Assembly: GCA_963751455.1 (NCBI GenBank)
Contig: CAVVUN010000009.1
Location: 64,001-128,000 of the forward strand
Source of the DNA: Nitrospirota bacterium
GTDB taxonomy: Bacteria; Nitrospirota; UBA9217
DNA length: 64,000 nt
Reading direction: 5' to 3'
Numbering within the stretch: the stretch's first letter is position 1; each line of letters begins with the position of its first letter. A model generated the notes under the pieces. It did no database searches. It was not told the DNA's origin and saw only the letters and a list, made by a program, of their open reading frames with translations. Of the stretch, positions 512-37,181 are shown in pieces. Made by a program: the position numbers and the translations under genes.

Positions 512-732
512 CTAACCCGGACAAGCCGGAACTAAAACCTTGGAACCGCGAAGGCGCGAAGGTCGCGAAGAAAACCTTGCAAGTCTTGAATTAAAACAAA
601 ATCTTTGTTTTGATGTCCTTCGCGTTCGCTTGTGCCCAGCGCATGTGAGTGCTTGCCGCGAATGCAGGGCATCGCGCCTTCGCGGTAAATATTCTTCCCA
701 TTTTGAGAAGGATTTGATTTGTAACAGACTAA
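512..732 (+). mobile_element. Non-autonomous repeat element (MITE-like), copy 1; CTAA at both ends
   Basis: Left end CCTAACCCGGACAAGCCGGAAC and right end TTCTTCCCATTTTGAGAAG match the reverse complement of 12074-12255; internal CGCGAAG inverted repeats. Confidence 0.7.
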
Positions 733-6662: not shown

Positions 6663-7150
6663 TAAAGCAGTTTGTAGAGAAGCGATTGCACGATATTGAT
6701 ACGTATCATCCGGAAGTAGAAATTGAGCGGTACAGCATTCAGGAGGATCATGTACATCTGATAATCATCATTCCGCCAAAATATGCAGTGTCGGCGATCG
6801 TCGGAAAGATCAAGGCAAATACGAGTAGGGAAATAAGAAAACATTTCGATTGGATCAAGAGAGTATATTGGAGAAATGAGTTTTGGTCCCCTGGGTTCTT
6901 TTCTTCAACGGTAGGAATAAACGAAGAGGTAATCAAGAGGTACGTGGAGTTTCAAGAAAAGGTTGATAAAGGGCAGTTGAAGTTTGGGTTTTAAAAATAA
7001 GTGCCACGGGCGTAAGCCCGTGGGTATCTACTTGCGTCCAAGCTCTTTTTAAGATGATTAATGGTTTAAACATCTAAGGCGCATCGGCGGTTTTGTTCTT
7101 GAAAACCTCGTCCTTATAAGATATTATCTTACTATAGCTATATCCCTTGA

Positions 7151-7393
<243 letters not shown>

Positions 7394-8088
7394 AGCTTTG
7401 GATCGTCGAAAGCGGTCGTATTCGTATTCATCAAAGTGAAGAGACTGAAGAATAACAAATCGCCGGCACACCTCGCCCGTATCGTAGTTCCCGTAATCAC
7501 AGTCCTCCTTCTTTTTCGGTTCCTCTCGCCACCTCTCAGGGACACCGTCAGTTTCTCCCAGGCGATCTATGACCGGAGCGGAAAGCTGCTTCGTCTGACG
7601 CTCTCCCGGGATGATAAGTACCGCCTCTGGCTACCGCTTAAATCGATATCTCCTGTCCTGGTCAAAGCGACGCTCTTGCACGAAGACAAATGGTTCCGAT
7701 TTCATCCGGGTGTGAGTCCAATCTCTCTTGCCCGTGCTGTCTGGCATACCTACATCAAGAAGGACCGGAAAATCGGCGGGTCAACGATCACGATGCAGCT
7801 TGCTCGTATCCGCTATGAAATTAACTCGCGAACGATCACAGGCAAGGCGGCGCAGATATTTGCTGCTCTCTGGTTGGAGCTTCTTTATTCCAAGAATGAT
7901 ATCCTCGAAGCTTATCTCAACCTTGTGCCGTATGGCTTGAATATCGAAGGGGCAGGGGCGGCAAGCCTTATTTACTTTTATAAGAACGCAGACAAGCTTA
8001 TTCTGTCTAACGCGATTACCTTGAGCGTGATTCCGCAGAGCCCGGCTCGCAGAATTCCTACTTATCTGGAAGTAAGTAATCGGAAAGA

Positions 8089-8197
8089 AAATCCTCCTCA
8101 ATCCCCCTTTTCGAAAGGGGGAGAAAACAATACCCCCCTTCATTCCCCCCTTGCCAAGAGGGGAAGAGGGGTAACAACGGGGGGAGAGGGGGGATTT
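8089..8197. repeat. C/G-rich palindromic repeat inserted in frame in pbpC
   Basis: AAATCCTCCTCAATCCCCCTTTTCGAAAGGGGGA...GGGGGAGAGGGGGGATTT. Confidence 0.8.
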
Positions 8198-8619
8198 GCA
8201 GGTAAAGACCTTCAGGCTGCCTGCGTCGCACTTTTCGCGAAATGGATCGAGAAAAATCCGAAGGACGGGGACCAAAAGGCTTTCATGGACATGCCCGTTG
8301 TTCTCAAACGTCCTTCTGACCTGCCGTTCCTGGCTCCGCACTTTGTGAACGAGGTGCGTAAGCTCAATCCCTTTGACCCCGTGCTTCATACCACGCTCGA
8401 TCTTAAACTGCAGAAACTTATTGAGCGGCATGTCCGCAGCTACGTTGATGGGAACAGGCAGAAGGGAATCAATAATGCTGCCGTGCTTCTTGCCGACGCT
8501 CGTACAATGGAAGTTAGGTCCCTGATCGGGTCGGCAAATTTCTTTGATCCCAGGATCGACGGACAGGTGAATGGCGCCTAGGCTAAACGTTCGCCCGGCT
8601 CTGCACTCAAGCCTTTTAT

Positions 8620-8783
8620 CCTAAAAACGGCATTTGAACACGGATGAACACGGAAACAGCGGATCAAAACAATGTGATAGAGCAAAAAGCCATCTCGCCT
8701 TTTGGGTGAATCCATTACTGTTCGTAACTTCCTATAAATCCGTGTTGATCAGATTTTATCCGTGTCCAACTGCTTTTTTCAGG
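8620..8783 (+). mobile_element. 164-bp MITE, copy 1, 5-bp TSD TTTAT
   Basis: Ends CCTAAAAA / TTTTTTCAGG; reverse-complement copy at 56833-56996. Confidence 0.92.
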
Positions 8784-9227
8784 TTTATCTACGGTTTAGG
8801 CATAGACCAGGGGATTATCCATCCTCTCACCATGCTGAAGGATGCGCCCATGAGCTTCGGTGCCTATAATCCTGAGAACTTTGATAATGATTTTGCCGGA
8901 CCGATCAAGGCATGGGATGCCCTGGTTAAAAGCAGGAATGTTCCGGCCGTTTATATCGTATCGCGTCTTTCTCCGCCTGGATTGCACGGATTTCTGCTCA
9001 AGGCCGGGATTACGCGCATGAAGGACGAATCCTTTTACGGGATGTCTCTGGCTTTAGGAAGTTCGGAAGTGACCATGGAGGAGCTGGTAAAACTCTATGC
9101 CATGCTTGCGAATGGGGGAGTTCTAAAGCCGCTCAAATTTTTCAGTGCATCTTTCTCTATCAGTAAAGTCTCGCACCGTCATTCCGGGCTTGACCCGGAA
9201 TCCAGTGATAATCTTGACAAGACGCTG

Positions 9228-11132
9228 ATAGGGGTAGGGACGACGCATTGATTTGCGCCGCCCCTCCCTCCGAACCGGACTGGCGGATTTCCCGCATCCG
9301 GCTCTCCAGTTGGTGGTTTTACCTTACCAAGGACTGACGTAGCTGCGACAAGGGCGTCTTCAAGGCTGAACAGCCCATGTGCATGAAAGAATTTGTTTGG
9401 CCAGCGCATATGATCGTATCCAAGGCTTATTCCCTGCCGCTTGCTGCGTTTGCGCAGTATGCTCCGCAAGCGCCTTCTTACCCAGCCGTCGAGCGGCGGA
9501 AAGGTCCATTTGTCGGCTATGTTTGAAATATTCAAACCAGCCCCGCAGGGTGTGGTTGACCTTCTTCGATGATTTCAGCCAGGCTCTTCCCGTTGCTGCG
9601 TTTCGTCTTCTCTCGTATGGCGTCTTTGAGTTTCTTCAGGCTCTTCTGGCGAGGGCAACCGCATTCCCTGCTCGAAGTGGTAGCCGAGAAAGTCAAATCC
9701 GCCTTCCGGCGTCGTCGTATCCACCAGCCGCGTTTTGTCGGGGTGCAGCGTCAGTCCCCGTTCCGTCAGCATCGTGCGCACTTTCTCCATTGCGGAGCTT
9801 GCTTCCTCCCGGCTGCGGCACAGGATCACGAAGTCGTCCGCGTAGCGGATCATCTGATACCCCGCCTGCGCCATGGCGACATCCACCGGATGGAGATAGA
9901 GGTTTGCAAGCAACGGGCTGATCACTGCTCCCTGCGGCGTCCCGGCTTCGGGCGTCCACAGCTTCAGTTCTTCCAGGATTTCCTGCTTCAGGAATGCCTC
10001 GATCAGCTCCAATACGCGCCCGTCGGCGATATACTTGCGTACCTCGGCCATGAGCGGTTCGTGGGGGATGCTGTCGAAGTATGCCTTGATGTCCGCATCC
10101 ACCACATGCGTATAGCCCGCCTCCAAGAGTTGATCCACTTCCCGCAAGGCGTCTTTGCATCCGCGTTTCGGACGGAATCCATAGCTGTGTTCGACGAACT
10201 CCTTCTCAAGATGGGCTCGATCACCATGCGCACCGCCGTCTGTGTTACGCGGTCCCGGACCGTCGGTATGCCCAACGGTCTCTTTTCCTTGCTGCCCGGC
10301 TTGTCGATATACGTCCGCCGGATGGGGCGGGGACAGTGGCTGTCCGTGCGTATTTCCTCTTCCAAGCGCGCAAGATTCGTCGCGTAGTTGCTCTCAAACG
10401 CCTCGATGCTTTGATGGTCCGAGCCGGCCGCCCCTTTGTTCGCCCTGACTTTAAGCCAGGCCGCTTCCAGGGTGGTCGGTCTGTATACCTTATCGATCAG
10501 GCTGAACCAAACGCCTCCTTTCACCCCTCGTTCGAGGGCCTCCAGCATGCGGTCCGTCCACACCGATCGTTCCACCCAGTCCCATCGTCTGGGGCCGGCT
10601 TCTCCCGTTTGTTTAGTCCCGCCGATGCGGGACACTGCCGCGGGTTGTGCTTCGTTCGGCGCGGCCTTCACGCATCCACCTTCCTGCACCCCTTGGCTCC
10701 ACGGGCATTACCCCGCTTCTTCGCTACTATGGGGCTCTGACTCCTGCCCAACTGACTCTTTCAGGGCAATGAACACTCCTTGCGCCGGGCAGGTCTCCCT
10801 GGTTCACCTCGCGCAACCTTCCATGCATTCCGTCACCAACCACCCGGCGCGCCCTGTCCTCGCTTTCTCCTGTCCGCCCAGCGTGACAGGCTTCCTGGGT
10901 CGTGCCGCCCGCCGGGGCTGCCGCACTTGCCAGGTCTGGACTTCGCCATGAATCGCAGGCTCGTCGCTACGCACGGCCGAATCGTGTTCGTCGTTATCCT
11001 ACGGACTGCATGTTCGCCTCCGGTTGCTCTCCACCCCGCCTCGCGGCGACGCAGTTACCTTCGGCTACCGGGAGTGGGCATCTCCCGGGAGAGGACTTTC
11101 ACCTCTCCGATCGCGCCTGCTCCCAGGCGCAC
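9228..11132 (-). mobile_element. Group II intron (class C type), antisense to pbpC
   Basis: 5' GTGCG at 11132, domain V GAGCCGGATGCGGGAAATCCGCCAGTCCGGTTC, 3' CCCTACCCCTAT; inserted right after a stem-loop. Confidence 0.93.
9319..10689 (-). pseudogene. ltrA: Intron-encoded reverse transcriptase/maturase, frameshifted
   Basis: RPLGIPTVRDR, GTPQGAVISPLLANLYL, RYADDF and maturase segments fall in three ORF fragments; 3' boundary approximate. Confidence 0.88.
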
Positions 11133-12073
11133 GATTCCCGCTTTCGCGGGAATGACGAACAAGATAATACGCGACTTCTCAGCAAGGAAGCCTCATACCT
11201 CGTGCTGGACATGCTCGCAACGAACCCGCCTCCCTATCAGGGATTCCGCAATGAATGGTTGCGAGATTCGACTAAGGTTCCATGGAAAACAGGCACTTCC
11301 TTCGGTTTCCGTGACGCGTGGTCAATCGGAATCGTCGGTCCTTATGTGCTTGCGGTCTGGATTGGGAACTTCGACGGGGAAGGCAACCCTGCATTCATAG
11401 GACGGGAGGCTGCTGCTCCATTGTTTTTTGAGATCATTGACTCCCTGAAATCACAGGATTCCGAGATAGGTAATTTCTCGGGTCACGGTCTCGCTGACTT
11501 GAACCTGTCCAAAGTGGAGGTCTGTGCTCTATCCGGCGGTCTTCCGGGACCCGACTGCGCTAACCGGGTCTCCACCTGGTTCATTCCAGGCAAGTCGCCC
11601 ATTGTGAAATGTGATGTTCACAGAAGAATATACATTAATACGCGAACTGGCCTGCGAGCCTGCATTGACGGCGCGCCGGGGACCAGGTCCGCGGTATATG
11701 AGTTCTGGTCCTCAGATCTTCTGGCGATCTTCCTTCAGAGCGGCATTACGCGTCGCGTGCCTCCGCCTTATGAACCGGGATGCAGCATGGAGAAAACATC
11801 GACAAAGGGGGCCGGCCCTCAAATCACCTCTCCCCGGGAAGGGGTGGTCTACAGCCTAAGGGCGGCATCGCTGAAGGACGAGCGGGTACCGCTGACCGCA
11901 GTTACTGATGCGGATACGCGTATTGTGCATTGGTTTGCAAATGAAGAGTATCTGGGCTATTCCGAGAGCGGAAAGACGTTCTTCTGGACGCCCAGGTCAG
12001 GGAAGTTCGCGATGCGCGCTGTTGACGACCAGGGCCGATCAGCTGTGAGGGATGTGGTCACAAGGATCGTAGA

Positions 12074-12255
12074 TTAGTTACTAAAAAGTAAAATTCTTCT
12101 CAAGATGGCAAGAAAATTCAGCCACAGAGGTCACAGAGCACACAGAGAACGGCTTGAAACAATTTCATAAATCCAGGCTTTGCTTTATATTTCTCCTCTG
12201 TGAACTCTGTGTGCTCTGTGGCAAAAAGGTTTTGGTTCCGGCTTGTCCGGGTTAG
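12074..12255 (-). mobile_element. Non-autonomous repeat element, copy 2; TTAG at both ends
   Basis: Ends match 512-732; interior has CACAGAG/CTCTGTG inverted repeats. Confidence 0.7.
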
Positions 12256-13487: not shown

Positions 13488-13508
13488 ACGTTACAAATAC
13501 ATCGATCA

Positions 13509-13662
13509 CATCCAGGCGAAGGGAATCCCGTGTAAATCGGGAGCGGACCCGCCGCTGTAATCCCGGCCCGAAAGGGCCTTATATCTCTGCTGAAGCAAGC
13601 CACTGATCAATCTGATTGGGAAGGCAGGCAGGGATGGGAGAGCCAGAAGACCTGCTTGGATG
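13509..13662 (+). ncRNA. Cobalamin riboswitch 1
   Basis: AAGGGAATCCCGTGTAAATCGGGAGCGGACCCGCCGCTGTAA, GCCACTG, GGGAAGG, B12 box AGCCAGAAGACCTGC. Confidence 0.93.
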
Positions 13663-13716
13663 TTCTCGCACAGTCTTCGGCGTTAAGATCCTGTGTGGGT
13701 TAATACCACGTTATTA

Positions 13717-13751: not shown

Positions 13752-13918
13752 GGTCCATTCGAAACCACGTGATGAAGGTAAACAAGATTTGAACCACGGG
13801 TTCGCTTCGCGAACACACAGTGAAGCGGGATAAAAAATGGGAAGTACCCAAGTTAATCTGTGTTTATCCGTGTGTCGCGATTCATTGCGACCTGTGGTTA
13901 CAAAAGAATACAAACAGG

Positions 13919-14101
13919 AATAAGAAACGGAAAGGGGTGCGATTCCCCTGCTGTCGCGCAACTGTAATGGAAGCGAAAGCCGATCATGCCACTGGAAGCG
14001 CCGTTCAAGCCGATTGAACCGTTTAAGCGGTTTAAACAGTTTGAACCATTGTTCTGGGAAGGCCGGCGAGTAGATTGTCCAGAGCCAGGAGACGTCTTAT
14101 T
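13919..14101 (+). ncRNA. Cobalamin riboswitch 2
   Basis: GGAAGGGGTGCGATTCCCCTGCTGTCGCGCAACTGTAA, GCCACTGG, TGGGAAGG, AGCCAGGAGACG. Confidence 0.88.
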
Positions 14102-14224
14102 CAAATTTTCCCGCACAAGGAGATATGCATGATCAGGACAAAACCGCCTCTGTTGGCATAAAGGGACCTATGCTGTTCGGGAAGTTGGTTCGACAATCAA
14201 AATAAAAACAGAGGAGATTACACA

Positions 14225-21922: not shown

Positions 21923-22965
21923 AGGAAAGCATTCTGCTGCTCGGACATGGAAGCCCTAAAAAAGACGCAAACAATCTCGAGCAGCTCGCGAAGATGCTGC
22001 ACGGTATGCTGCATGCCGGATGCGCGGAAGACTGCGTCAAGGTGGCGTACCTGCAGTTTGCGGAGCCCGGTATCCCGGATACGATCAAAGAGTGTGTGCA
22101 GCAGGGCGCGAAGAAGATCATCCTTCACCCGTTCTTTCTCACCGCTGGGATGCACGTGACAAAAGACATCCCGGAGATGATCCGAGATGCGCAGAAGTTG
22201 TATACTGGTGTGGAATTCGTGTATACCGAGCCGCTCGGCATTCACGAAAAGCTGGCTCATATCGTGCTGGAACGCATCAGTGCCGCGGAACAGCTTGCGC
22301 CTGAGGACATCGAAAAGAGGAGTTTCGATATTCTTTCAGCAGAAGCCGGCCTGGGCAGTGTTCCCCCGGATCGTTTGCCGATCGTACAGCGCGTTATTCA
22401 TGCAACCGCTGATTTTGACTTTAAGAACACACTTACGTTCCACCCGGATGCCGTAATAAAGGGGATCGAGGCGATTAGAGCCGGGAAGGATATCCTGACC
22501 GATGTCGAAATGGTGCGGACGGGCATCAATAAAAAGTGGCTTTCAAGGTGGGGCGGAAAAGTTGTCTGCGGGATTCAGGATGCGCGATCCACCCTGCACT
22601 CGCGCGAGCACTCGTCAACGCTGGGCCCAGGCACGATGCAGGATCACGACAAGAGAACGAGATCGGAGATCGGGATCGAGACCGCATTGCGGGAGAACGG
22701 CAACATCGGGATCATAGCCATCGGAAACGCGCCTACAGCGCTTATCAGAACGATTGGCCTTCTCGAAGACTCCGAACTCCCGATTCGGAACTCCGAACTG
22801 CTGATAATCGGTGTTCCCGTGGGCTTTGTTAAAGCTGTTGAATCAAAGGCCCTCCTTGCGGCCCAGCGGTTTCCTTTCATCACGGCTTTGGGCAGAAAAG
22901 GCGGCACGCCGGTAGCAGTAGCAATCGTTAACGCGTTATTGAAAATGGCAGGAGAGGGTAAGTGA
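21919..22965 (+). CDS. cbiX-cbiC: CbiX cobaltochelatase / CbiC precorrin-8X methylmutase fusion
   Basis: LLGHGS..., PFFLTAGMHVTKDIP then IEKRSF, RVIHATAD, GNAPTAL, GRKGGT. Confidence 0.93.
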   Translation: MKESILLLGHGSPKKDANNLEQLAKMLHGMLHAGCAEDCVKVAYLQFAEPGIPDTIKECVQQGAKKIILHPFFLTAGMHVTKDIPEMIRDAQKLYTGVEFVYTEPLGIHEKLAHIVLERISAAEQLAPEDIEKRSFDILSAEAGLGSVPPDRLPIVQRVIHATADFDFKNTLTFHPDAVIKGIEAIRAGKDILTDVEMVRTGINKKWLSRWGGKVVCGIQDARSTLHSREHSSTLGPGTMQDHDKRTRSEIGIETALRENGNIGIIAIGNAPTALIRTIGLLEDSELPIRNSELLIIGVPVGFVKAVESKALLAAQRFPFITALGRKGGTPVAVAIVNALLKMAGEGK

Positions 22966-23798
22966 GGATTCAAAGTTCAAAGTTCAAGGTTCAAATTAAC
23001 GTAGTGTTTTCTCTCACGCTTACTGCATTCTGCCTGTTGCTTGCATCAACAGATGCGCACGCGATGCACATCTCCGAGGGAATCCTGCCTTTTAACTGGG
23101 CGGTGTTATGGTTTGCCGTGTCAGTGCCGTTTGTAGGATACGGACTATACCGTTTGAGGAAGATGTCGGAAATCGATCTCTCTTTCAAGCCGCTCGTGGG
23201 ACTGATGACAGCGGTGATATTTATCATTTCCTGCATGCCCGTACCGGTACCGACTGCGGGCACCTGCTCTCATCCCTGCGGAACGGGGATATCGGGAATA
23301 TTGCTCGGCCCTGCGATCAGCGTACTGATCACCGCAGCTGCTCTCCTGATACAGGCGCTTTTCCTTGCCCATGGCGGATTAAGCACCTGGGGTGCTGACG
23401 TTGTTTCCATGGGTGTTGTAGGTTCTTTCGCGGGATATGGTACCTTTAAGCTATTACGCTCAATGAAGGTAAAGATAGCGGCTGCAGGCTTCGCAGCTGG
23501 TTTGATAGCTGACTGGGCCACTTACCTTGCCACATCCGTAGAGCTTGCATCAGGCATAAGGGGCGACTCGGCCTTTCTGCCGCTGTTCACGAAAATTGTT
23601 ATTGCCTTCATTCCTACTCAGCTCCCGTTGGGGTTCCTGGAAGGAGCCATGACCGCAGGAATGATATCCCTGCTTTCCAGGAAGAGACCGGATCTTCTGG
23701 TAAAGATGGGAGTGGTGAAAAGTCAGGAGTTAGGAGTCAGGAATCAGGGGGGGTATTGTGAAAAGTCAGGAGTCAGGAGTCAGAAGTCAGGAGTATAG
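22962..23798 (+). CDS. cbiM: Cobalt ECF transporter substrate component
   Basis: Signal peptide then MHISEGILP, GTCSHPCG, AHGG. Confidence 0.94.
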   Translation: MRIQSSKFKVQINVVFSLTLTAFCLLLASTDAHAMHISEGILPFNWAVLWFAVSVPFVGYGLYRLRKMSEIDLSFKPLVGLMTAVIFIISCMPVPVPTAGTCSHPCGTGISGILLGPAISVLITAAALLIQALFLAHGGLSTWGADVVSMGVVGSFAGYGTFKLLRSMKVKIAAAGFAAGLIADWATYLATSVELASGIRGDSAFLPLFTKIVIAFIPTQLPLGFLEGAMTAGMISLLSRKRPDLLVKMGVVKSQELGVRNQGGYCEKSGVRSQKSGV

Positions 23799-24084
23799 GG
23801 GAATAATTTTAATATTATTATTTCTCCTTTCTTTTCACTTTTCACTCTTCACTGTTGCTTCTGCTGCTGAGAAATGGACTGGCGTGGATGAAACGGTCAT
23901 TGAAAAAATTGCCAAGGAGCATGGCAGGCAGGCGCGGGAGCCGTTTGTCAACACCGACAAGGGGGACCTTCTTCTCTTCGTCTTTCTCCTTGCGGGCGCA
24001 ATCGGCGGTTTTGCAGCAGGGTATTCGTGGCGAAAGCTCATAGAGCCGAAGCAGAAAGATAATAAAAATGGAAATACTGTCTGA
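23758..24084 (+). CDS. Small cobalt transporter subunit (CbiN-like)
   Basis: KWTGVDETVIEKIA...GDLLLFVFLLAGAIGGF; sits between cbiM and cbiQ. Confidence 0.8.
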   Translation: MKSQESGVRSQEYRGIILILLFLLSFHFSLFTVASAAEKWTGVDETVIEKIAKEHGRQAREPFVNTDKGDLLLFVFLLAGAIGGFAAGYSWRKLIEPKQKDNKNGNTV

Positions 24085-24820
24085 ATATCATAAAAAAGAT
24101 CATGTGATGACAAGGATCGATGCGCGGGTAAAATTGATCAGTGCCCTGGTCCTTTTGGCAATGGTCCTGAGTTACCGTGGATTCGTATTCCCGCTGGCAA
24201 ACACGGTCCTCTGCCTGTCTTTGTGCATAACGATGCGGGTTCCCTTGCGTGTTTTTATTGTGAGATTTTCAGAACCCCTGTTCCTTGCAGCAGTCATCCT
24301 CCTTCTGAAATTCTTTTTCTCGGGAAGGGATGTCATGTTTTCGATTCATGTTCTCGGCATGGACGTAATTGGACACAGGGATGGGCTACTGGAGGGCCTG
24401 ATGGTAGGAAACAGGATCATAGCCGCTGTCTCTATCGTAGCGCTCATGGGATTTTCCACGCCGTTTACCGAATTCATGGCCGGCCTTTCCTGGCTCAGGG
24501 TCCCCAAGGGCTTTGTCGATATATTGATGTTCGCATACCGGTATATCTTTGTCCTTCTCGATGACGCTGAGGTGATTTACAGCGCTCAGAAGAACAGACT
24601 GGGTTATTCTACGATAAAGAGGGGCTTAAACTCATTCGGCGTTCTTGCCGGTTCGTTGACTCTTAAAGCTTTCGATCACAGCCATAATACGACCGTGGCT
24701 ATGGTCCAGAGAGGGTATGATGGCAATATGCCGTTGTTGAAACATAAAACCTTTAAGTTGTCCGAGGTCGCAGCCTCGGTTGTTTTCATGACCGGAATGG
24801 GATTTTTATGGAAAATGTAA
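24068..24820 (+). CDS. cbiQ: Cobalt ECF transporter T component
   Basis: DARVK, YRYIFVL, AQKNRLGY, AMVQRGY. Confidence 0.94.
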   Translation: MEILSEYHKKDHVMTRIDARVKLISALVLLAMVLSYRGFVFPLANTVLCLSLCITMRVPLRVFIVRFSEPLFLAAVILLLKFFFSGRDVMFSIHVLGMDVIGHRDGLLEGLMVGNRIIAAVSIVALMGFSTPFTEFMAGLSWLRVPKGFVDILMFAYRYIFVLLDDAEVIYSAQKNRLGYSTIKRGLNSFGVLAGSLTLKAFDHSHNTTVAMVQRGYDGNMPLLKHKTFKLSEVAASVVFMTGMGFLWKM

Positions 24821-25668
24821 GGAGAACGCAAACGGAGCAGGTCCGCCTTTCTGTTGACATACGATCCTTTATATATCCCGATGGGACGCAGGCGCTGGCC
24901 GACATAACCCTTGAAATCAAAAAGGGCGATTTCGTCGGTCTTCTGGGGTCCAACGGTTCGGGAAAGACAACGCTTCTGAAAGCCATGGACGGGCTGATGA
25001 AGGAGTACCAGGGCAGTGTTCATCTCGATAATGCGGACATCAGGAAACTATCTCCGAAGGAGATTTATAGAAAAGTCGGCCTCGTGTTCCAGAATCCGGA
25101 TGACCAGCTGTTTGCGCCGACCGTGTTTGAGGATGTCGCATTCGGGCCTCTCAATATGGGATTTGCCGGAGAGGAGCTTGCCCGCCGTGTAAACACGGCG
25201 CTCAATGATGTTGAAATGGAAGGGGCTGCGAGGAAGTCTATTCACCATCTGAGTTTCGGTCAGAAGAAAAGAATCTGCATTGCAGGGCTCCTGGCCATGG
25301 GACACGAGATCCTGCTGCTGGATGAGCCGACCGCGGGATTGGACCCGATGGGTGAATATAAAATGATGGGCCTCCTGACGCGGCTTAACAGGGAACGTGG
25401 CGTAACAATCGTCATGGCAACCCACAGCGTTGATCTTGTTCCTCTCTTCCTTGACAGGCTGTATATTCTGAGTAAAGGCCGCATTGCCCGGGGAGGTGCG
25501 CCCGAAGAGGTCTTTACGGCGCCGGAAGAGATGTCCCAGGTAAAGCTTCGTCTTCCCCAGATTGCAGAATTGATTTACCGGCTCAAGCACGATGATGGAA
25601 TGCCGTTCGAGAAAATTCCGCTTACCATCGGAGAGGCGCGGAGAGAGATCCTGAAAATTGCAAAATGA
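24808..25668 (+). CDS. cbiO: Cobalt ECF transporter ATPase
   Basis: GSNGSGKTT, FQNPDDQLF, LSFGQKKR, DEPTAGLDP. Confidence 0.95.
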   Translation: MENVRRTQTEQVRLSVDIRSFIYPDGTQALADITLEIKKGDFVGLLGSNGSGKTTLLKAMDGLMKEYQGSVHLDNADIRKLSPKEIYRKVGLVFQNPDDQLFAPTVFEDVAFGPLNMGFAGEELARRVNTALNDVEMEGAARKSIHHLSFGQKKRICIAGLLAMGHEILLLDEPTAGLDPMGEYKMMGLLTRLNRERGVTIVMATHSVDLVPLFLDRLYILSKGRIARGGAPEEVFTAPEEMSQVKLRLPQIAELIYRLKHDDGMPFEKIPLTIGEARREILKIAK

Positions 25669-25704
25669 TATGCAAGTTTATAATTAACCTTCGAGCGAAA
25701 CGAC

Positions 25705-26223
25705 ATGCGTAAAGGATATGTTCAGGTTTATACGGGCAATGGAAAAGGCAAGACTACGGCTGCACTGGGGTTGGCCCTGCGCGCTGCAGGAGCGGGCCTC
25801 AGAACGTATATCGCCCAATTCATAAAAAAAAGAAAATGCAGCGAACATGTCGTGCTCGAAGAGCTTCAAGACAGGATCGTGATAAAACAATACGGCAACG
25901 GCTTTCTTCTGAAGAAAAAACCGGCTTTGGCAGATATCAAAGCTGCGCAGGCAGGATACGCAGAAGTAAAAGAAATTATTCAGTCCAGGGAATACGATAT
26001 AGTGGTTCTGGATGAAGCGAATGTCGCTGTCCATTACGGGTTGATCCCGGTACAGGACCTGCTCGAGCTTATTCAACAGAAACCGAAAAGCGTCGAGCTC
26101 GTGATAACCGGCAGGTATGCGGATGAGAAAGTGATTCAGGCGGCGGACCTCGTCACCGAGATGCGCGAGATCAAGCATTACCGGGAAAAGGGAGTAGAGG
26201 CGCGGCGTGGCATTGAAAAATAA
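25705..26223 (+). CDS. cobO: Cob(I)yrinic acid a,c-diamide adenosyltransferase
   Basis: VYTGNGKGKTTAALG, LDE, ELVITGR, ADLVTEM..IKH. Confidence 0.95.
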   Translation: MRKGYVQVYTGNGKGKTTAALGLALRAAGAGLRTYIAQFIKKRKCSEHVVLEELQDRIVIKQYGNGFLLKKKPALADIKAAQAGYAEVKEIIQSREYDIVVLDEANVAVHYGLIPVQDLLELIQQKPKSVELVITGRYADEKVIQAADLVTEMREIKHYREKGVEARRGIEK

Positions 26224-27523
26224 AAAGCTGCGGTCCGGCTATACAACCGGCGCGTGTGCTGCTGCTGCGGCAAAGGCGGCGACAGTACTGCTAATGCGGA
26301 GCGCGGAGTGCGGGGACTTGCACCCAGTGCTAACGAGTGCGAATGCGCGAGTGCAGGGTGTGCGTAGTGAAGAGGAAATCCAGGAGGTATCAATTCCTTT
26401 TCCTGATGGGAGCAGAGTACAATTTGCTGTTCGTAACTCCTCACTCCGAACTCATAACTCCGAACTGATTTCATCGGCCTCAGTGATTAAAGACGCTGGA
26501 GATGATCCGGATGTGACGCATGGTGCGGAGATTATAGCTACAGTCCGGTTTGTGGAGTCGGGACTAAAAAATGAAGAATGTCCGCAAATCGTAATAAAAG
26601 GCGGTAAAGGTGTCGGCAGGGTAACCAAGCCCGGCCTGGCAATCCCAGTTGGCGAACCGGCGATCAATCCCGTGCCGAGGAAGATGATCCGGGAAGCAGT
26701 GATGGAAGCAATAACGGAATCCGTAAATCAACCCATCCCCCTCCCAACCTCCCCCTTGAAAGGGGAGGAACTCAATAAATTCCCTCCCCTTCAAGGGGAG
26801 GGTAAGGGTGGGGATGGGTTGGCTGCCACTCCGCACTTGGAAGTCACCATCTCCGTGCCTGCGGGTGAGGAACTAGCAAAAAAGACACTGAACCATCGCC
26901 TCGGCATTGTCGGGGGAATATCGATCCTCGGCACTACCGGTATCGTCCGTCCCGTATCCAGGGAAGCATATACGGCAACCATTACCGCGGGGATGGATGT
27001 CGCAAAGGCCATGGGTCATAGTGTCGTGGTCCTTTCGTCTGGGAGGACTTCCGAGAAAGCGCACATGAAGAAGTTTGCTTTTCCTGACGAATCCTATGTT
27101 ATGATGGGTGACTATCTCGAATTTTCGCTCATTGACGCGAAGAACCACGGCTTTAGCTCTATCCATCTGTGCGCGCAATGGGCAAAGATGATAAAGACGG
27201 CAATGTCCACACCCCAGACTCATGTCCGGCACGGAGCGATTGAGGCGACGAATGCGGCTGCTTTTCTGAGGTTCCTTGGCGTGGATGTGCCGCCGGCAAA
27301 AGAGTTCAATACGGCCCGGGAAATCTTTGATTACATAAACGCCGCATCATCCAAGCCGCTTGCGCCCAGCGTTGACGAGTGCTTGCGCGAGTGCAGGGTG
27401 CATACCGCGCTTGCCGCGGTTTGCGCAGCGGCAAAACAATACGCTGAGCGGATCACATCAGGCATCCCGGTCATCGTTCATCTCGTGTCTTATGAGGGAA
27501 AAATCATTGCAGCCAGCGAATAA
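26207..27523 (+). CDS. cbiD: Cobalt-precorrin-5B C1-methyltransferase
   Basis: LRSGYTTGACAAAA, KDAGDDPDVTHG, GISILGTTG; carries several in-frame repeat inserts. Confidence 0.95.
   Translation: MALKNKKLRSGYTTGACAAAAAKAATVLLMRSAECGDLHPVLTSANARVQGVRSEEEIQEVSIPFPDGSRVQFAVRNSSLRTHNSELISSASVIKDAGDDPDVTHGAEIIATVRFVESGLKNEECPQIVIKGGKGVGRVTKPGLAIPVGEPAINPVPRKMIREAVMEAITESVNQPIPLPTSPLKGEELNKFPPLQGEGKGGDGLAATPHLEVTISVPAGEELAKKTLNHRLGIVGGISILGTTGIVRPVSREAYTATITAGMDVAKAMGHSVVVLSSGRTSEKAHMKKFAFPDESYVMMGDYLEFSLIDAKNHGFSSIHLCAQWAKMIKTAMSTPQTHVRHGAIEATNAAAFLRFLGVDVPPAKEFNTAREIFDYINAASSKPLAPSVDECLRECRVHTALAAVCAAAKQYAERITSGIPVIVHLVSYEGKIIAASE
26729..26821. repeat. 93-bp palindromic repeat inserted in frame in cbiD
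   Basis: CAACCCATCCCCCTCCC...GGGTGGGGATGGGTTG; 31 codons. Confidence 0.88.
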
Positions 27524-28841
27524 ACTTTCTGTGATAGGCATCGGGTACCGGCCGCTCTGTAAGCGCGCGCAAGAGCTTCTTCTCGGCGCCGAGGTCATTC
27601 TTGCTTCAACACGGCTGCTTGATGTGTTTACCCGTTATGCTGAATATGAAGCCGTTAAACACCGGATCAAGGTCATAAACAAGGTGCCTGATACGATCGA
27701 GTTTATTAAAGAACGCTTTTCTCATTCAGGATCGCAACCCGTAGCTCTCCTCGCGTCCGGAGACCCGCTGTTCTTCGGCATTGGAAGGAAGATACGGGAA
27801 GAGTTCGGGAAGGAAGCGGTTGAGATCCTGCCGGATCTCTCGAGCGTTCAGGAGGCGTTTGCCCGGATTTATGAACCCTGGGATGATGCATTTTTCATAA
27901 GCCTGCACGGCGGCCCGGACATCTCGAAGAGACGCAAGCTGCCCTATGAGGCCGCGGACATCCCCGGGCTGCTCCAGCGATACGGCAAGCTTGGAATACT
28001 TACCGATTCGGAAAACAATCCGGTTCTTATAGCAAAGGTTCTCGAATCTGCAATTCACAGTCCGCAATCCGCAATTGTGATGTCCGTCTGCGAAAGGCTC
28101 GGCTATCCGGATGAAAAGATCACCCAAGGGACTCCTGAAGAGATCGCGGCTAAATCTTTTTCAGACCCAAATGTGGTTATAGCGCAGGAGTCAGGAGTCA
28201 CCCTGCACTCGCGCAAGCACTCGTCAACGCTGGGTGCAGGCAGGAGTTACCCTGCGCTCGCGCAGGAGACAGGAATTATATTCGGATTGCGGGAAGATGA
28301 GATCGATCATGATCGCGGGCTGATCACCAAAGACGAGGTGAGGGCAGTCACGCTTCATAAACTTTACCTTCCGGAACATGGAGTTCTCTGGGACATCGGG
28401 GCGGGATCAGGCTCCGTATCGCTCGAGGCGGCGCGTCTTTGTCCTGGAATGCAGATCTTTGCCATAGAAAAAGAACAGCATCGGATCGATACAATAAATG
28501 CAAATTTGCAGAAGTTCGGCATTCGGAATGTATCAATCATCCAGGGAAGTGCGCCTGATGTTCTTCAGAACATTCCTGCTCCGGATCGCGTTTTCATCGG
28601 CGGGAGCGGCGGAAGTCTCGATTCCATCATAGATCTGGTGAAAGAGAAAATGCATGAAGGTATTGTTGTTATAAACGCAGTAACCCTCGATACACTCAAT
28701 AAGGCGGTCCCGGCCCTGGAAAAGGCCGGGTTCTCAGTGGATGTTACGGAGATATCCGTATCGAGATCAAGGACAGTGGCAGGCAAGCGGCATATGAGCG
28801 CGTTAAACCCTGTGTTTATCGTGAAGGGCAAACGGAGTTAA
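27507..28841 (+). CDS. cbiET: Bifunctional CbiE/CbiT methyltransferase/decarboxylase
   Basis: VIGIG, LASGDPLFFGIG, ITKDEVR, WDIGAGSGS; TTG start inferred. Confidence 0.92.
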   Translation: MQPANKLSVIGIGYRPLCKRAQELLLGAEVILASTRLLDVFTRYAEYEAVKHRIKVINKVPDTIEFIKERFSHSGSQPVALLASGDPLFFGIGRKIREEFGKEAVEILPDLSSVQEAFARIYEPWDDAFFISLHGGPDISKRRKLPYEAADIPGLLQRYGKLGILTDSENNPVLIAKVLESAIHSPQSAIVMSVCERLGYPDEKITQGTPEEIAAKSFSDPNVVIAQESGVTLHSRKHSSTLGAGRSYPALAQETGIIFGLREDEIDHDRGLITKDEVRAVTLHKLYLPEHGVLWDIGAGSGSVSLEAARLCPGMQIFAIEKEQHRIDTINANLQKFGIRNVSIIQGSAPDVLQNIPAPDRVFIGGSGGSLDSIIDLVKEKMHEGIVVINAVTLDTLNKAVPALEKAGFSVDVTEISVSRSRTVAGKRHMSALNPVFIVKGKRS

Positions 28842-28846
28842 AATAT

Positions 28847-29650
28847 ATGGATGGAAAACTCTACGTTATTGGAATAGGGCCCGGCGATCCCGAACTCATG
28901 ACGGTAAAGGCAGTAAGACTGCTGAAGCAAGCGCCGTGCATCTTTGTTCCTAAAGGACGCGAAGAAGGGAGCAGTCTCGCGCTCTCGATCGTCCAGAAAG
29001 CTATTGCACTCGACGGCAAAGAGATTGTCGAGGCGTACTTCCCGATGATGAAAACCGCCCCTCACGCCCCGCACTCGCGCTCCGCACTCGTAACGCCGGG
29101 TGCAAGCCCCGGCCCTCTCCCAGGAGGGAGGGAGATGTCGACGCGAAGTGCGGACGCGAACGAACTCAATGCCAGCTGGAACGAAACGGTCGAGGCTGTT
29201 CTCAACAGGCTGGACAGGGGCATCGATGTCGCGTTCATTACGATCGGAGATCCGGGAATATACAGCACGTTTTTCTATCTCTATGACCGACTGCTCGAGC
29301 AAAAGCCCTCACTTGCAGTTGAGATTATCCCAGGGATATCGTCGATCAATGCTGCAGCTGCACGGGCAGGGTTGTACCTGGGGCTCGGCAACGACCGGAT
29401 TGCCATACTTCCGGCGAATTACCTGGACAGCCTCCAGGAGACCCTGGAGAAGTTCGATACCGTGGTTTTGATGAAGGTGAACAAGGTGTTCGATACGGTT
29501 AAGGACATGCTTGTGAAGATGAACCTGGTGGAGAACGCCGTTTATGTTGCCCGTACCGGGATGGATGACGAGCGGGTGTGTAACGATATCCGGAAGGTGA
29601 CGCAGGAAGAATTGAACTATTTCTCTCTGGTTATAGTGAGGAAGCGATGA
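28847..29650 (+). CDS. cbiL: Cobalt-precorrin-2 C20-methyltransferase
   Basis: GIGPGDPELMTVKA, GDPGIYSTF, VVLMKV. Confidence 0.93.
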   Translation: MDGKLYVIGIGPGDPELMTVKAVRLLKQAPCIFVPKGREEGSSLALSIVQKAIALDGKEIVEAYFPMMKTAPHAPHSRSALVTPGASPGPLPGGREMSTRSADANELNASWNETVEAVLNRLDRGIDVAFITIGDPGIYSTFFYLYDRLLEQKPSLAVEIIPGISSINAAAARAGLYLGLGNDRIAILPANYLDSLQETLEKFDTVVLMKVNKVFDTVKDMLVKMNLVENAVYVARTGMDDERVCNDIRKVTQEELNYFSLVIVRKR

Positions 29651-30405
29651 AAGCAAAGGTCATATTCATAGGCGCAGGACCCGGAGACCCGGAATTGATA
29701 ACCGTGAAAGGCAGAAAGCTTCTCGATTCTGCTGACGTTGTGATCTATGCGGGAAGTCTCGTGAATCCCGCGCTGCTGAACGGCATCAAGGCCAGGATCT
29801 TTGATTCAGCTCACATGGACCTGGACGAGATCGTCGCAATAATGAAAAAAACTGCGGAAGACAACAGGATGCTCGTGCGTCTTCACACTGGGGATACCTC
29901 GTTCTACAGTGCAATTTCCGAGCAGATAGAACGGCTCCGCGAACTCGATATTCCGTACGAGGTCGTACCCGGAGTATCATCAGCCATGGCCGGGGCGGCC
30001 ATACTCGGCCAGGAACTGACAATTCCCGAGATCAGCCAGACCGTGATCTTTACCAGGATGGAAGGGCGAACCCCGGTGCCGGCTTCCGAACGACTCGGTT
30101 CACTCGCTTTTCATCGTGCTACCATGGCGATCTTCCTGAGCGTCGGCATGATTGAAAAGGTCCGTGATGAACTGCTCCAGGGCTATCCAGAAAATACGCC
30201 CGTTGTGATCATCGAGAAGGCAACATGGCCCGATCAGAAGGTCATACGGGGAACATTAAAGGAAATTGTGTCCCTGGTTACGAACGCAGGCATCATGAAG
30301 ACGGCGCTTATCTACGTGGGTGAATCCCTTCGAGCATCGGAAAAATCCATGGGAAAAGAATCGAAGCTTTATCATAAGGATTTTAAACATGGATATCGGG
30401 AATGA
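29647..30405 (+). CDS. cbiF: Cobalt-precorrin-4 C11-methyltransferase
   Basis: GAGPGDPELIT, YAGSLV, RLHTGD, SKLY...F.H. Confidence 0.95.
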   Translation: MKAKVIFIGAGPGDPELITVKGRKLLDSADVVIYAGSLVNPALLNGIKARIFDSAHMDLDEIVAIMKKTAEDNRMLVRLHTGDTSFYSAISEQIERLRELDIPYEVVPGVSSAMAGAAILGQELTIPEISQTVIFTRMEGRTPVPASERLGSLAFHRATMAIFLSVGMIEKVRDELLQGYPENTPVVIIEKATWPDQKVIRGTLKEIVSLVTNAGIMKTALIYVGESLRASEKSMGKESKLYHKDFKHGYRE

Positions 30406-30477
30406 CGTGGTATGGAGCGAGCCAAACGCGTTGGCGTGTAAAATCACGGCGACATGGTCGTCTTGATCCAAAAAAGA

Positions 30478-31515
30478 ATGAAAAAATCTGCGATCCTGTA
30501 TATAACTGAGAACGGCCGGACGTTGGCAGAGCGCCTGAAGGATCTGTACTCTGATGCCGACATTATAAAGTTTGTCCCCGGTGTTGTCATGGATTTGTGG
30601 GGCAAGTATGAACGCTTTGTGTTCATTATGGCGGCGGGCATTGTTGTCCGGACCATAGCTCCGCTGCTTAAGGATAAGAGGTCGGATCCCTCGGTAGTAG
30701 TGCTGGACGAACAGGGAAAATTCGCGATTAGCCTCGTGAGCGGGCACCTGGGCGGAGCGAACGAGCTGGCAAAGGAGATTGCCGGTTTCCTTGGAGGTGA
30801 AGCAGTCATTACGACGGCGTCAGATGTAAACGAGTTGCCGCCGGTAGACCTCTGGGCCAGGGACAACAACCTTATCATTGAGAACTGGGAGGCGCTTCCG
30901 CAGGTCGGTACGCGTTATGTGAATAACGGAGGTTTAAGGGTCTATAGCGATGTCCCTCTGAAATTTCCCGACCAATTTCTCAGAGTTGCGGATCCCCGGT
31001 TCGCTGATGTTATCATTACAGCGCGGCTCGACGTATACGCCGGCGCCCCGAGATGCACGATAACAGGAGAAGGATGCTCCACCGGTTCATGCCGGGTGAA
31101 GGGACAAATCTATCTGCGGCCTGTTAATCTTGTCCTCGGAATCGGCTGCAACAGCGGCACGTCCGGGGATGAGATTCGGAATGCCGTGCACCGCGTGCTT
31201 GCAGAACATAATCTCGCCTTTGCCTCCGTTCACTCCGTTTCGACCATTGAGATCAAAGGCAGTGAGCCGGGACTCAAAATGTTTATTCAGGAAAATGACT
31301 TTTCTCTGCGTACTTTCAGCATCCACGAGCTGAACAGTGTGGAAGGGATAGAAAAATCGGAAGCAGTGTTCAAGGCCACCGGAGCCTACGCTGTTGCAGA
31401 ACCGGCGGCAATGCTTGCCGCAGGAACGGACAGTGTGCTCGTGCCGAAACAAAAAAAGGGAAACGTGACAGTGGCAGTTGCGGAAATACATAATGTGGAA
31501 GCGAGTGAAGAATGA
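30478..31515 (+). CDS. cbiG: Cobalt-precorrin-5A hydrolase
   Basis: MAAGIVVRTIAP...DP, SGHLGGAN, GIGC, VAEPAA. Confidence 0.94.
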   Translation: MKKSAILYITENGRTLAERLKDLYSDADIIKFVPGVVMDLWGKYERFVFIMAAGIVVRTIAPLLKDKRSDPSVVVLDEQGKFAISLVSGHLGGANELAKEIAGFLGGEAVITTASDVNELPPVDLWARDNNLIIENWEALPQVGTRYVNNGGLRVYSDVPLKFPDQFLRVADPRFADVIITARLDVYAGAPRCTITGEGCSTGSCRVKGQIYLRPVNLVLGIGCNSGTSGDEIRNAVHRVLAEHNLAFASVHSVSTIEIKGSEPGLKMFIQENDFSLRTFSIHELNSVEGIEKSEAVFKATGAYAVAEPAAMLAAGTDSVLVPKQKKGNVTVAVAEIHNVEASEE

Positions 31516-32417
31516 AAATACAAAATTCATCGGCCAAAGGTACTGTATACATCGTCGGCACCGGGCCGGGAAGTCTTGACCATATTACGCCCGCAGCCCG
31601 AAAGGCGATCAGCAAATCGGATGTTATTGTCGGGTACGGGACCTATCTCGACCTGATTCGTGAGCTTCTGCAGGACAAGGAGGTCCTCTCCACGGGAATG
31701 ACCCAGGAGGTAGACCGGTGTCGCAAAGCAGTCGAGCTTGCACAAGGGGGCAAGACAGTTGCAGTCATCAGCGGCGGTGACCCGGGAGTCTACGCCATGG
31801 CGGGGCTCGTATTTGAGATTCTCAGGAGTCAGGAGTCAGGAGACACCCATCACTCGCGCGAGCACTCGTCAACGCTGGGCGCAGACAGGAGTCAGGAGTC
31901 AGTAGGGAAAAACTTCACACTCCGCCCGCGCCCAGCGACTGCGAGTTCTTGCGCGAGCGCAGGGTGCAATCGGCAATTGCCTCTCGTCGAAGTTATTCCC
32001 GGCATCTCGGCGCTCAATGCGAGCGCTTCCCGCCTGGGTGCTCCGCTGATGCACGACTTCGCCTGCATCAGCCTCTCGGACAGGCTTACGCCATGGGACA
32101 TGATCGAAAAGCGGCTTGAAGCAGCCGCGGCAGCGGACTTTGTCATTGTCCTCTATAATCCGCGGAGCAAAGGCAGGGCTGGTCACGTAAACAAGGCACG
32201 GGAGATTATTCTGAAGCACCGCTCGTCGGCGACTGTTGTCGGCATCGTCAAGGGCGCCATGCGGAATAATGAGACAATCATGGTAACGGATCTGCAAACC
32301 ATGAAAGACGACGATATAGATATGCAGACGACTGTTATTATCGGAAATTCGAAAACCTTCGCGTGGAACAACTTTATGATTACGCCCCGTGGATATGACA
32401 ACAAATTCAAAATTTGA
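31512..32417 (+). CDS. cbiH: Cobalt-precorrin-3B C17-methyltransferase
   Basis: VGTGPG, SGGDPGVYAMAG, GAPLMHDF, LYNPRS, TPRGY. Confidence 0.95.
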   Translation: MKIQNSSAKGTVYIVGTGPGSLDHITPAARKAISKSDVIVGYGTYLDLIRELLQDKEVLSTGMTQEVDRCRKAVELAQGGKTVAVISGGDPGVYAMAGLVFEILRSQESGDTHHSREHSSTLGADRSQESVGKNFTLRPRPATASSCASAGCNRQLPLVEVIPGISALNASASRLGAPLMHDFACISLSDRLTPWDMIEKRLEAAAAADFVIVLYNPRSKGRAGHVNKAREIILKHRSSATVVGIVKGAMRNNETIMVTDLQTMKDDDIDMQTTVIIGNSKTFAWNNFMITPRGYDNKFKI

Positions 32418-33732
32418 AATTCAAAATTCAAAATTGAAACCGGCGGCCCTGCTATGGGATGAGTCGTTTCTCTGGGGATTGATGGCGTATAGGGCTTTAA
32501 CAGCGAACGGCCTTTTGTTCGATCTTATTCGCTCCGAGGACGTAAGGAACGGCGGCCTGAAAAAGTACAGCCTCCTTTTTGTTCCGGGGGGCTGGGCATC
32601 CAACAAGATAAAGGCGCTCGGCGACGCAGGCGTCTCTGAAATAAAGGCATTTGTCCGTGAAGGAGGCGCTTATCTTGGATTTTGCGGAGGGGCAGGCCTT
32701 GCGACCATGGACGGCATGGAACTGCTGCCGGTTAAGAGAAGAGCGACGAAAGACCGAGTGCCGAGCTTCAGCGGCCGGATCAGGCTTGATACATGCGACC
32801 ATGCTCTCTGGCAGGGGATTTCCGATCCGGTCTTCAATGCCTGGTGGCCTTCGCAGTTTGTTATAGACGAAAGCGTATCCGTGCTTGCCGCCTACGGCTC
32901 GGCGCTGCCTGATTCCTTCAGCTCCGATATCAATGTCGGCGATGTTGAAGCGAATGGCAACTGGGCAGAGCTTGAGCGGTTTTACCAGATCAATCTTGAT
33001 CCCAAACGCCTGCTCGGAGAACCCGCGGTCATCGAGGGACGGTTCGGCATGGGCAAAGTTCTTTTATCGCTTGTGCATTTTGACTCGCCGGATGACAAAA
33101 ACGGCGCAATCGCGCTGAAAAACCTGTGGAGATATCTTATCGGGGAGTGCGGGACAGATAATTCAGGATTCAGAATTAATGATAAAAAAAGCGCTGTATC
33201 GTGCATCATGCATGATGTACCAATTTCAGAGCCAATACCGGCAACATCCGGAATTGGGCCTGCTGTTGACGAGTTGATCAATCTGGGAGAACGGAACTTT
33301 CTTTGGTACTGGCGAAATCCGATGCTCCTGCAGTGGAGACGGGGTGTCAGGGGGCTTGAATACTGCACACTTTATATCATGGTAAAAGAGATCTTGCGGC
33401 TATTGTCCCGGGAGGACTTGGAACGCATTGGAAGGGAAAGCGATATAAGCCTCGAACTGGTCATTAAGTTCGTCGATAAGGCGAAAAAGCTGCTGCTCCT
33501 GGAACGCTATGCCATGCAGGGTGCCCATATTACGTATGAACGGTGCGATGTGCCCGAAATCCAGGCACTTCGAGAAGAACTATTTTCCCGTTCAAAGAGC
33601 CACGGAGGAGTCTTTAAAGAGATGATCGGTCACGTTGACCGGCTGCTCTATGCAGCACTATCGGCTACGGGAGGCAAGCGTGTAAATGAAGGGAAAAACA
33701 AAAACCATACGGGTCAATTGCCCGGTATGTAA
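32389..33732 (+). CDS. BPL_N / class I glutamine amidotransferase-like protein
   Basis: LFVPGG...[16 protein letters not shown] nucleophile elbow; true start may be TTG near 32434. Confidence 0.75.
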
Positions 33733-36654: not shown

Positions 36655-36985
36655 CTGATTGCGCCTTGCACTCGCGCCTGCATAGCCTGTATTCGCGCAA
36701 GCATAAGGCTTAGACCCTTTGTTTACCATCTCGCTAGGTAAGGCTTAGACTCATTGTCGTACCCTCGCACTGGGAAATGCGAGGGGAATCAATGACCGCA
36801 GAGACGGGAATCAAGGACCTCATAAACGTACCCTGCATTCGCGCGGAGCACTCATATGCGCTGGGCACAGGCCGGGCACAGGCGAAATTTGGATTGCCGA
36901 TAGAATCCAGACTATGCGTGATGGTGTGAAAATTATGTAGGGGCAGCCCTGTGTGGCTGCCCTCAACATTGTGTGACTTATACTA

Positions 36986-37080: not shown

Positions 37081-37168
37081 CGCCTTCGAGGGGCGCTGCA
37101 GCAGTCACCGCAAGGTGGGTCTGTCAGGCTCGATGGTGTGGTTCAATAGGTAACAACGGCGCCCATTC
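37081..37168 (+). ncRNA. SAH riboswitch
   Basis: TCGAGGGGCGCTGCAG...CAGGCTCGA...AACGGCGCCCA (pseudoknot GGGCGC/GCGCCC) directly before ahcY. Confidence 0.9.
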
Positions 37169-37181
37169 ATTTAACTTGTGA

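Follow-up and report, generated by a model that had tools for sequence, protein, structure and literature searches.

The 64,000-nt stretch analysed here (the window) covered positions 64,001 to 128,000 of contig CAVVUN010000009.1 from a Nitrospirota bacterium (assembly GCA_963751455.1). It carried a cobalamin (cob) operon whose genes contained repeated in-frame insertions of a short element that we called E44. The host open reading frames (ORFs) matched the NCBIfam families CbiX-CbiC, CbiD, CbiET, CbiL, and CbiH. The original prediction, made from the sequence alone, had described a palindromic element in these genes; all of its full copies were found in place, and the host ORFs were open. With seven in-frame copies, the operon was a hot spot for E44. 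The copies in the window were as follows (lengths are net).

22590..22631, + strand: E44 copy, 42 nt, in the cbiX-cbiC fusion, where the conserved TR[SA] motif follows directly; stop-free local variant.
26316..26360, - strand: E44 copy, 45 nt, with a CAAGT tail, within a GCGGAGT-type heptamer array in cbiD.
27359..27400, - strand: E44 copy, 42 nt, in the loop of the C-terminal part of cbiD; stop-free local variant in reverse orientation.
28199..28240, + strand: E44 copy, 42 nt, in a GGAGTCA array of the CbiE-CbiT linker; the position was also filled in one ortholog (L234).
28248..28267, + strand: remnant of an E44 copy that has lost its interior and keeps the left arm and the CAGG tail.
29065..29106, + strand: E44 copy, 42 nt, in the variable loop of CbiL, where it lies within a CCCCTCACCC-type hairpin repeat.
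31844..31885, + strand: E44 copy, 42 nt, in a GGAGTCA array of cbiH; stop-free local variant.
31925..31966, - strand: E44 copy, 42 nt, in a GCGGATT/ACTCCGC-type repeat of the same cbiH loop as 31844..31885.
629..671, - strand: intergenic E44 copy, T-start variant, within a CCGCGAAG-type repeat.
36661..36885, + strand: intergenic nest between metK and ahcY, in the order E44 > E44 > E57 > E57 (E57, a second element, is described below), with a complete E44 (36829-36871) in an E44 right arm.

The sequences at 36661-36705 in this nest had been taken for partial copies. They were indeed E44, namely the left halves of copies that nested insertions had interrupted.

A genome-wide search by profile and covariance model, which had been proposed as a check, showed that E44 was a 43-nt dispersed hairpin repeat, of which this genome (15 contigs totalling 5.7 Mb) carried about 150 copies. 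The profile gave 150 matches at E<=1e-4 and 202 at E<=0.1, while the reversed genome used as a control gave none at E<=1; thus, the family was not a product of chance. We counted 143 full-length copies, and the net length was 39-46 nt in 122 of 123 copies. The covariance model matched nine copies in the window (E from 8e-15 to 1e-10), all of which belonged to its own training set. The exact pattern was present in 31 of the 63 genomes of the same Nitrospirota family and in none of 337 other genomes of the phylum, and the covariance model matched 40 of the 63. Within a single genus, the number of matches per genome ranged from 0 to at least 99, although such counts were subject to the incompleteness of metagenome-assembled genomes. 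Nearly all records with the pattern came from Nitrospirota. On contigs labelled as lying outside this phylum, two genomes had one copy each, possibly because of mis-binning, and a third genome with six copies had a match list that coincided with that of an own-family genome; we discounted these cases. No plasmid match was found. Three matches (L147-L149) lay on two viral contigs, a possible route between hosts, and inspection by eye revealed no mobiliser-like neighbour on either contig. A search with E44 against Rfam gave no match, and we did not find a description of the family in the literature covered, which took in few subscription journals. E44 was a real family, apparently undescribed, and a variant of a known but unexplained kind of repeat.

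The structure of E44 was revealed through covariation rather than energy. Namely, the six top pairs by mutual information with average product correction (3-37, 16-20, 10-26, 8-32, 9-27, and 7-33) shared one hairpin register, which began at base 1 and left a four-base tail; 137 distinct copies entered this analysis, among which kin copies were not independent. In an alignment of 58 sequences (43 from other genomes and 15 own), 95.5% of the cells paired and double changes were seen in 7 of 13 pairs; the structure had been derived from the own-genome set, which overlapped this alignment in those 15 rows. None of 500 shuffles and no slid register equalled this pairing. By folding energy, E44 was only weakly palindromic (z of -2.3 for the forward and -1.4 for the reverse strand), so that in the phrase "palindromic element" the hairpin held but the palindrome was weak. 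On the reverse strand, the near-invariant forward-strand mismatches (T·C, C·T, and C·A) become tandem G·A/A·G and G·T, and we therefore took the reverse strand as the structured one. It was predicted to form a bulged hairpin with tandem G·A pairs. From its 5' end, this strand had a CCTG (102/143) or CTTG (29/143) tail, a lower stem with one purine-purine mismatch, and a bulge of 3-4 nt, beyond which came two pairs, the tandem G·A, a short stem, and a hypervariable loop. A DNA-type GNA triloop signature was dropped, being present in 8 of 31 own and 6 of 60 foreign triloops.

The junctions of E44 followed an exact rule. Both were C in 123 of the 143 own copies. Of 215 foreign copies whose flanks were distinct, 206 had C at both junctions and 211 had C as the base after the tail. 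Across 127 parsable copies, the first base of the element covaried with base 39 (C-G in 110/112, T-A in 9/11). It follows that the left base belongs to the element and that there is no target duplication; a one-base duplication was dropped from consideration for this reason, and duplications of two or more nucleotides were not the rule. E44 thus enters directly 5' of a target C on the forward strand, that is, 3' of a G on the structured strand. The preferred context was CA^C (31 of 65 independent flanks). When the empty sites were rebuilt by this rule, 23 of 143 were present elsewhere as exact 21-mers, compared with 0-4 under five other junction rules. Four host repeats existed in the same genome both empty and filled (13 empty and 6 filled, 10 and 3, 7 and 2, 3 and 1). 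Empty sites were also present in orthologs: the alignment proposed earlier was made and gave seven ortholog loci without E44. Neither ancestral peptides nor a lack of empty sites, the two outcomes named in advance as contrary to the original prediction, was observed, and its picture of a dispersed repeat of the selfish type, in frame and tolerated, was supported.

The sites themselves were largely repeats. Among the rebuilt sites, 30/143 had a period of seven, compared with 1.6% of control intergenic positions, and 65/143 lay within 11-mers seen at least five times, compared with 13% of the control. The hosts included two hairpins that flank RAYT genes, and E44 had inserted into itself 12 times, at two positions (six each). 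E57, the second element (e.g., at 36705-36828 of the window and G000:C15:1354311-1354488), was about 57 nt long, had 129 matches and none in the control, and possessed its own covarying hairpin. It inserted in E44 and also hosted E44 in its loop, and it formed 59-nt tandem arrays. There was moreover, in the same genome, a 21-22-nt hairpin repeat (on C1, C2, and C15 of G000) with about ten copies, most of them inside called ORFs, and a longer palindromic form that was intergenic. By inspection, it had the same CCTG tail and T-GA-G...C-GA-A core as E44.

E44 had been regarded as an element that chiefly inserts into proteins and adds new loops to them. This was not borne out. Only 16 of 159 copies were inside called genes (17 with the first cbiD copy, which was missed by our rough gene caller, 4299 genes), and about 90% were outside. 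In addition, at least five of the seven cob copies lay inside older heptamer or hairpin repeats, in loops that were already length-variable in orthologs. Beyond the cob operon, E44 was found in genes for nitrogenase-component-type, TPP, deacetylase, and radical-SAM proteins. The net length was a multiple of three in 11 of 13 full in-gene copies compared with 44 of 111 intergenic ones (p=0.003), and several frames and both strands were used. The lack of stops on the forward strand was a property of a local GTCAACG variant (4 of 143 full-length copies), whereas 104 of the 143 carried a forward stop. All four copies of this variant were within 9.3 kb of the cob operon; each had its own flanks, and both orientations occurred. 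Such a pattern points to hopping or conversion on a local scale, combined with selection. Because the frame was kept and stops were avoided, the in-gene copies were likely to be translated.

The seven ortholog loci without E44 provided insight into how these loops grew, since most of the same loops already carried heptamer-derived peptides. The CbiL loop had 11-40 aa in 112 of 120 parsable homologs, and one homolog (P0003) represented the empty-host form of the loop in the window. Four others (P0002, P0005, P0026, and P0041) had E44-like peptides in different frames and hosts, seen at the protein level only and weak in two of them. In a CbiET ortholog with 61% identity (L234), E44 was present at the same base, in the form of a different stop-free variant; this may be an independent hit or an old shared insert. 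The CbiL insert of the window mapped between residues 70 and 72 of PDB 2qbu, and this CbiL departed from 3 of 135 conserved columns, in each case conservatively (homolog mean 2.6). AlphaFold prediction from the CbiL sequence alone was of poor quality (pLDDT 47), and the model was not used. The cob operon was also the top spot of the genome for in-gene heptamer arrays (four arrays, about 20 times the mean). Other short inserts, with ends resembling GQAG or RGQA, were present in the same loop of six further CbiL homologs (P0012, P0013, P0014, P0043, P0055, and P0116), which suggests further tailed mini-elements.

Upstream of the operon, two tandem cobalamin riboswitches were located at 13497-13673 and 13899-14114. 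A conserved gene of 447 aa (32389-33732, + strand) with a weak BPL_N match closed the cob operon in relatives.

We compared E44 with several known classes of small repeats. The closest analogue appeared to be the cyanobacterial SDR family rather than the Rickettsia palindromic elements (RPEs) of about 150 bp named in the original prediction. SDR1-8 of Nostoc, reportedly described by Elhai et al. 2008 (Genome Res), are said to be 21-27 nt long, with a structure inferred from compensatory change. They are also said to be embedded in heptamer arrays and mini-elements, to nest in themselves, and to be confined to one lineage, the Nostocales, and they are not known to have a mobiliser. The structure of E44 was likewise backed by compensatory change, and E44 likewise lay in heptamer arrays and other mini-elements, nested in itself, and was lineage-confined. 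It differed from the SDRs in being about twice as long (43 nt), in its Nitrospirota host, in its defined 5' CCTG tail and no-duplication rule, and in the reciprocal nesting with E57. SDR5 inserts precisely into HIP1 (PMC4390886).

The RPE analogy held for in-frame tolerance. RPEs are inserted in frame in working metabolic genes, in several frames and orientations; RPE-1 measures about 150 bp, encodes a conserved peptide, and has almost half of its copies in ORFs (PMC10969869, PMC3733652). E44, also inserted in frame in intact genes, differed from the RPEs so described: it was 43 nt long, had about 10% of its copies in ORFs in several frames without a conserved peptide, and rode in older repeats. 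REP sequences are 20-50 nt long and mostly intergenic, with some intragenic copies, and their bulged strand-specific stem is preceded on its 5' side by a conserved tetranucleotide (PMC8266576, PMC3733652). In all these respects, E44 resembled the REP/TnpA-REP (RAYT) system. However, the E44 tag was CCTG or CTTG and not GTAG or CGTC, its junction was flush with the hairpin, no REPtron was found, and REP-iREP doublets were not the norm. E44 was not a MITE either: the combination of terminal inverted repeats and target-site duplication was absent, and the first base belonged to the element. Finally, the multicopy sequences of Geobacter metallireducens and G. bemidjiensis comprise heptamers and palindromes that recur inside genes as well as between them, in non-random clusters, in all frames, and without frameshift (PMC2700814, PMC2996986). 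The in-gene Geobacter repeats are comparable to E44 and likewise unexplained. The sequence of E44 differed: none of four E44 motifs had a match in the supplements covered for G. bemidjiensis (all but files 13-15).

With high confidence, we consider E44 to be a non-autonomous mobile mini-element. How it is moved is much less clear. Our tentative reading, to which we give a little less than an even chance, is that a putative trans-acting enzyme of the HUH/Y1 type, which cuts and joins single strands, inserts it without target duplication. Such a mobiliser would recognise the hairpin and tail on single-stranded DNA. With its 5' tetranucleotide, its strand-specific bulged hairpin, and its entry without duplication, E44 resembles the substrates of HUH/Y1 enzymes (PMC8266576). 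Many identical copies would have spread as passengers of larger mobile repeats, and the in-gene copies would be translated as floppy extensions of loops opened earlier by other repeats. The abundance of E44 in the cob operon would reflect both the tolerance of this operon's loops for inserts and the local hopping of one variant. The passenger step agreed with the flanks: 88% of 25 near-identical pairs had common flanks, so these copies had mostly moved within larger host repeats, and the earlier view that E44 is active now was left unsupported.

Several observations weighed against a Y1-type enzyme. E44 flanked none of the 33 Y1 matches in its own genome, where a cognate RAYT gene would be flanked by its repeat, and the nearest copy was 494 bp away. 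Over 63 genomes, Y1 counts did not track E44 (rho -0.19). No Y1 match was present in 8 of the 33 E44-rich genomes (those with five or more E44 matches), including a single-contig genome that was 98% complete. The cut was directly beside the tail, in contrast to the distant CT of TnpA-REP, whose GTAG tag also differed. Of 129 E44 copies, 80 had their forward strand on the G-rich strand (p=0.008), as did 46 of the 72 independent copies. We read this weak replichore bias as placing the unstructured strand on the template of lagging-strand synthesis, the reverse of what IS200/605 elements do. Among 225 foreign loci there were five Y1 profile matches, one of them confirmed as Pfam Y1 and none recurrent. 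Searches for other mobilisers were also negative. E44 flanked none of the three IS110 genes of its genome, none of the four-helix-bundle genes (4 of 9 matches examined), and none of the GxxExxY genes (7 of 10 examined). Pairing of left and right E44 ends over up to 4 kb gave no gene-carrying version, and the genes beside E44 or E57 (324 own, 102 and 225 foreign loci) belonged only to large generic families.

An alternative is that E44 moves through an RNA intermediate, by reverse transcription or RNA-templated recombination, as has reportedly been proposed for the Nostoc SDR repeats. The G·U-type wobble and tandem G·A pairs would suit RNA equally well, insertion was precise and without duplication, and the genome encoded six reverse transcriptases. 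However, an RVT_1 match was absent from 19 of the 33 E44-rich genomes and the correlation was negative (rho -0.26); moreover, the loops had no RNA signature (UUCG in 0 of 70; GNRA in 8 vs GNYA in 23), and the orientation followed the replichore slightly more closely than gene sense (13 of 21 between lagging-strand genes, a small sample). We consider this route unlikely. We judged it similarly doubtful that E44 belongs to a wider superfamily of tandem-G·A hairpins whose mobilisers, small nucleases of the GIY-YIG type or of host repair, would move the host repeats as well. The 21-22-nt repeat appeared by inspection to share its CCTG tail and core with E44, and two GIY-YIG genes (L158, L172) were flanked by hairpins with the T-GA-G...C-GA-A core. 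Yet no E44 or E57 match was found in 27 GIY-YIG loci. GIY-YIG matches were present in all 33 E44-rich genomes but also in 63 of 64 genomes overall (UvrC included; rho 0.14), and their presence was thus uninformative. Least probable by far was that E44 is not a mobile element but a regulatory RNA or DNA site under selection (a terminator, or a site for an RNase or another protein) that gene conversion has spread, or else an insert that is excised from mRNA. Conservation of the structure across genera and a preferred orientation in 61 of 101 copies between co-directional genes (p=0.046) would fit, but this reading was largely refuted by the empty and filled host pairs, and it sat badly with precise insertion in both orientations, nesting in itself and in junk repeats, patchiness within genera, the lack of an Rfam match, and in-gene copies that kept frame and avoided stops as expected if translated.

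Returning to the mobile mini-element, a broader and rather speculative proposal would unite E44, the 21-nt hairpin, and the cyanobacterial SDRs in one unrecognised minimal class of mobile DNA, with a 5' CCTG tail and a hairpin of tandem sheared G·A pairs. A single putative enzyme, neither Y1 nor reverse transcriptase, would join such DNA 3' of a G and leave no duplication; where the same permissive loops were hit again and again, new protein segments would be built up in layers. We regard this as improbable. How repeats shorter than 50 nt move is an open question, which E44 makes testable through its covariation-defined fold, its exact junction rule, and its natural empty and filled alleles. 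Its patchiness within genera allows a mobiliser to be sought by genome profiling. E44 also gives a layered record of enzyme loop growth, from the empty loop to the host repeat and then to E44.

Other features of the window included a SAH riboswitch ahead of ahcY (37082-37171). A group II intron on the - strand (9228-about 10900; Rfam domain V/VI match at 9228-9306, reverse transcriptase match at 9674-10213) was flanked by fragments of a split pbpC / PBP1c gene (7436-8581, 8634-9251, and 10902-12077). A broken IS200-type tnpA with a terminal hairpin was located at 6617-6955 (+ strand), and two intact copies were present elsewhere in the genome.

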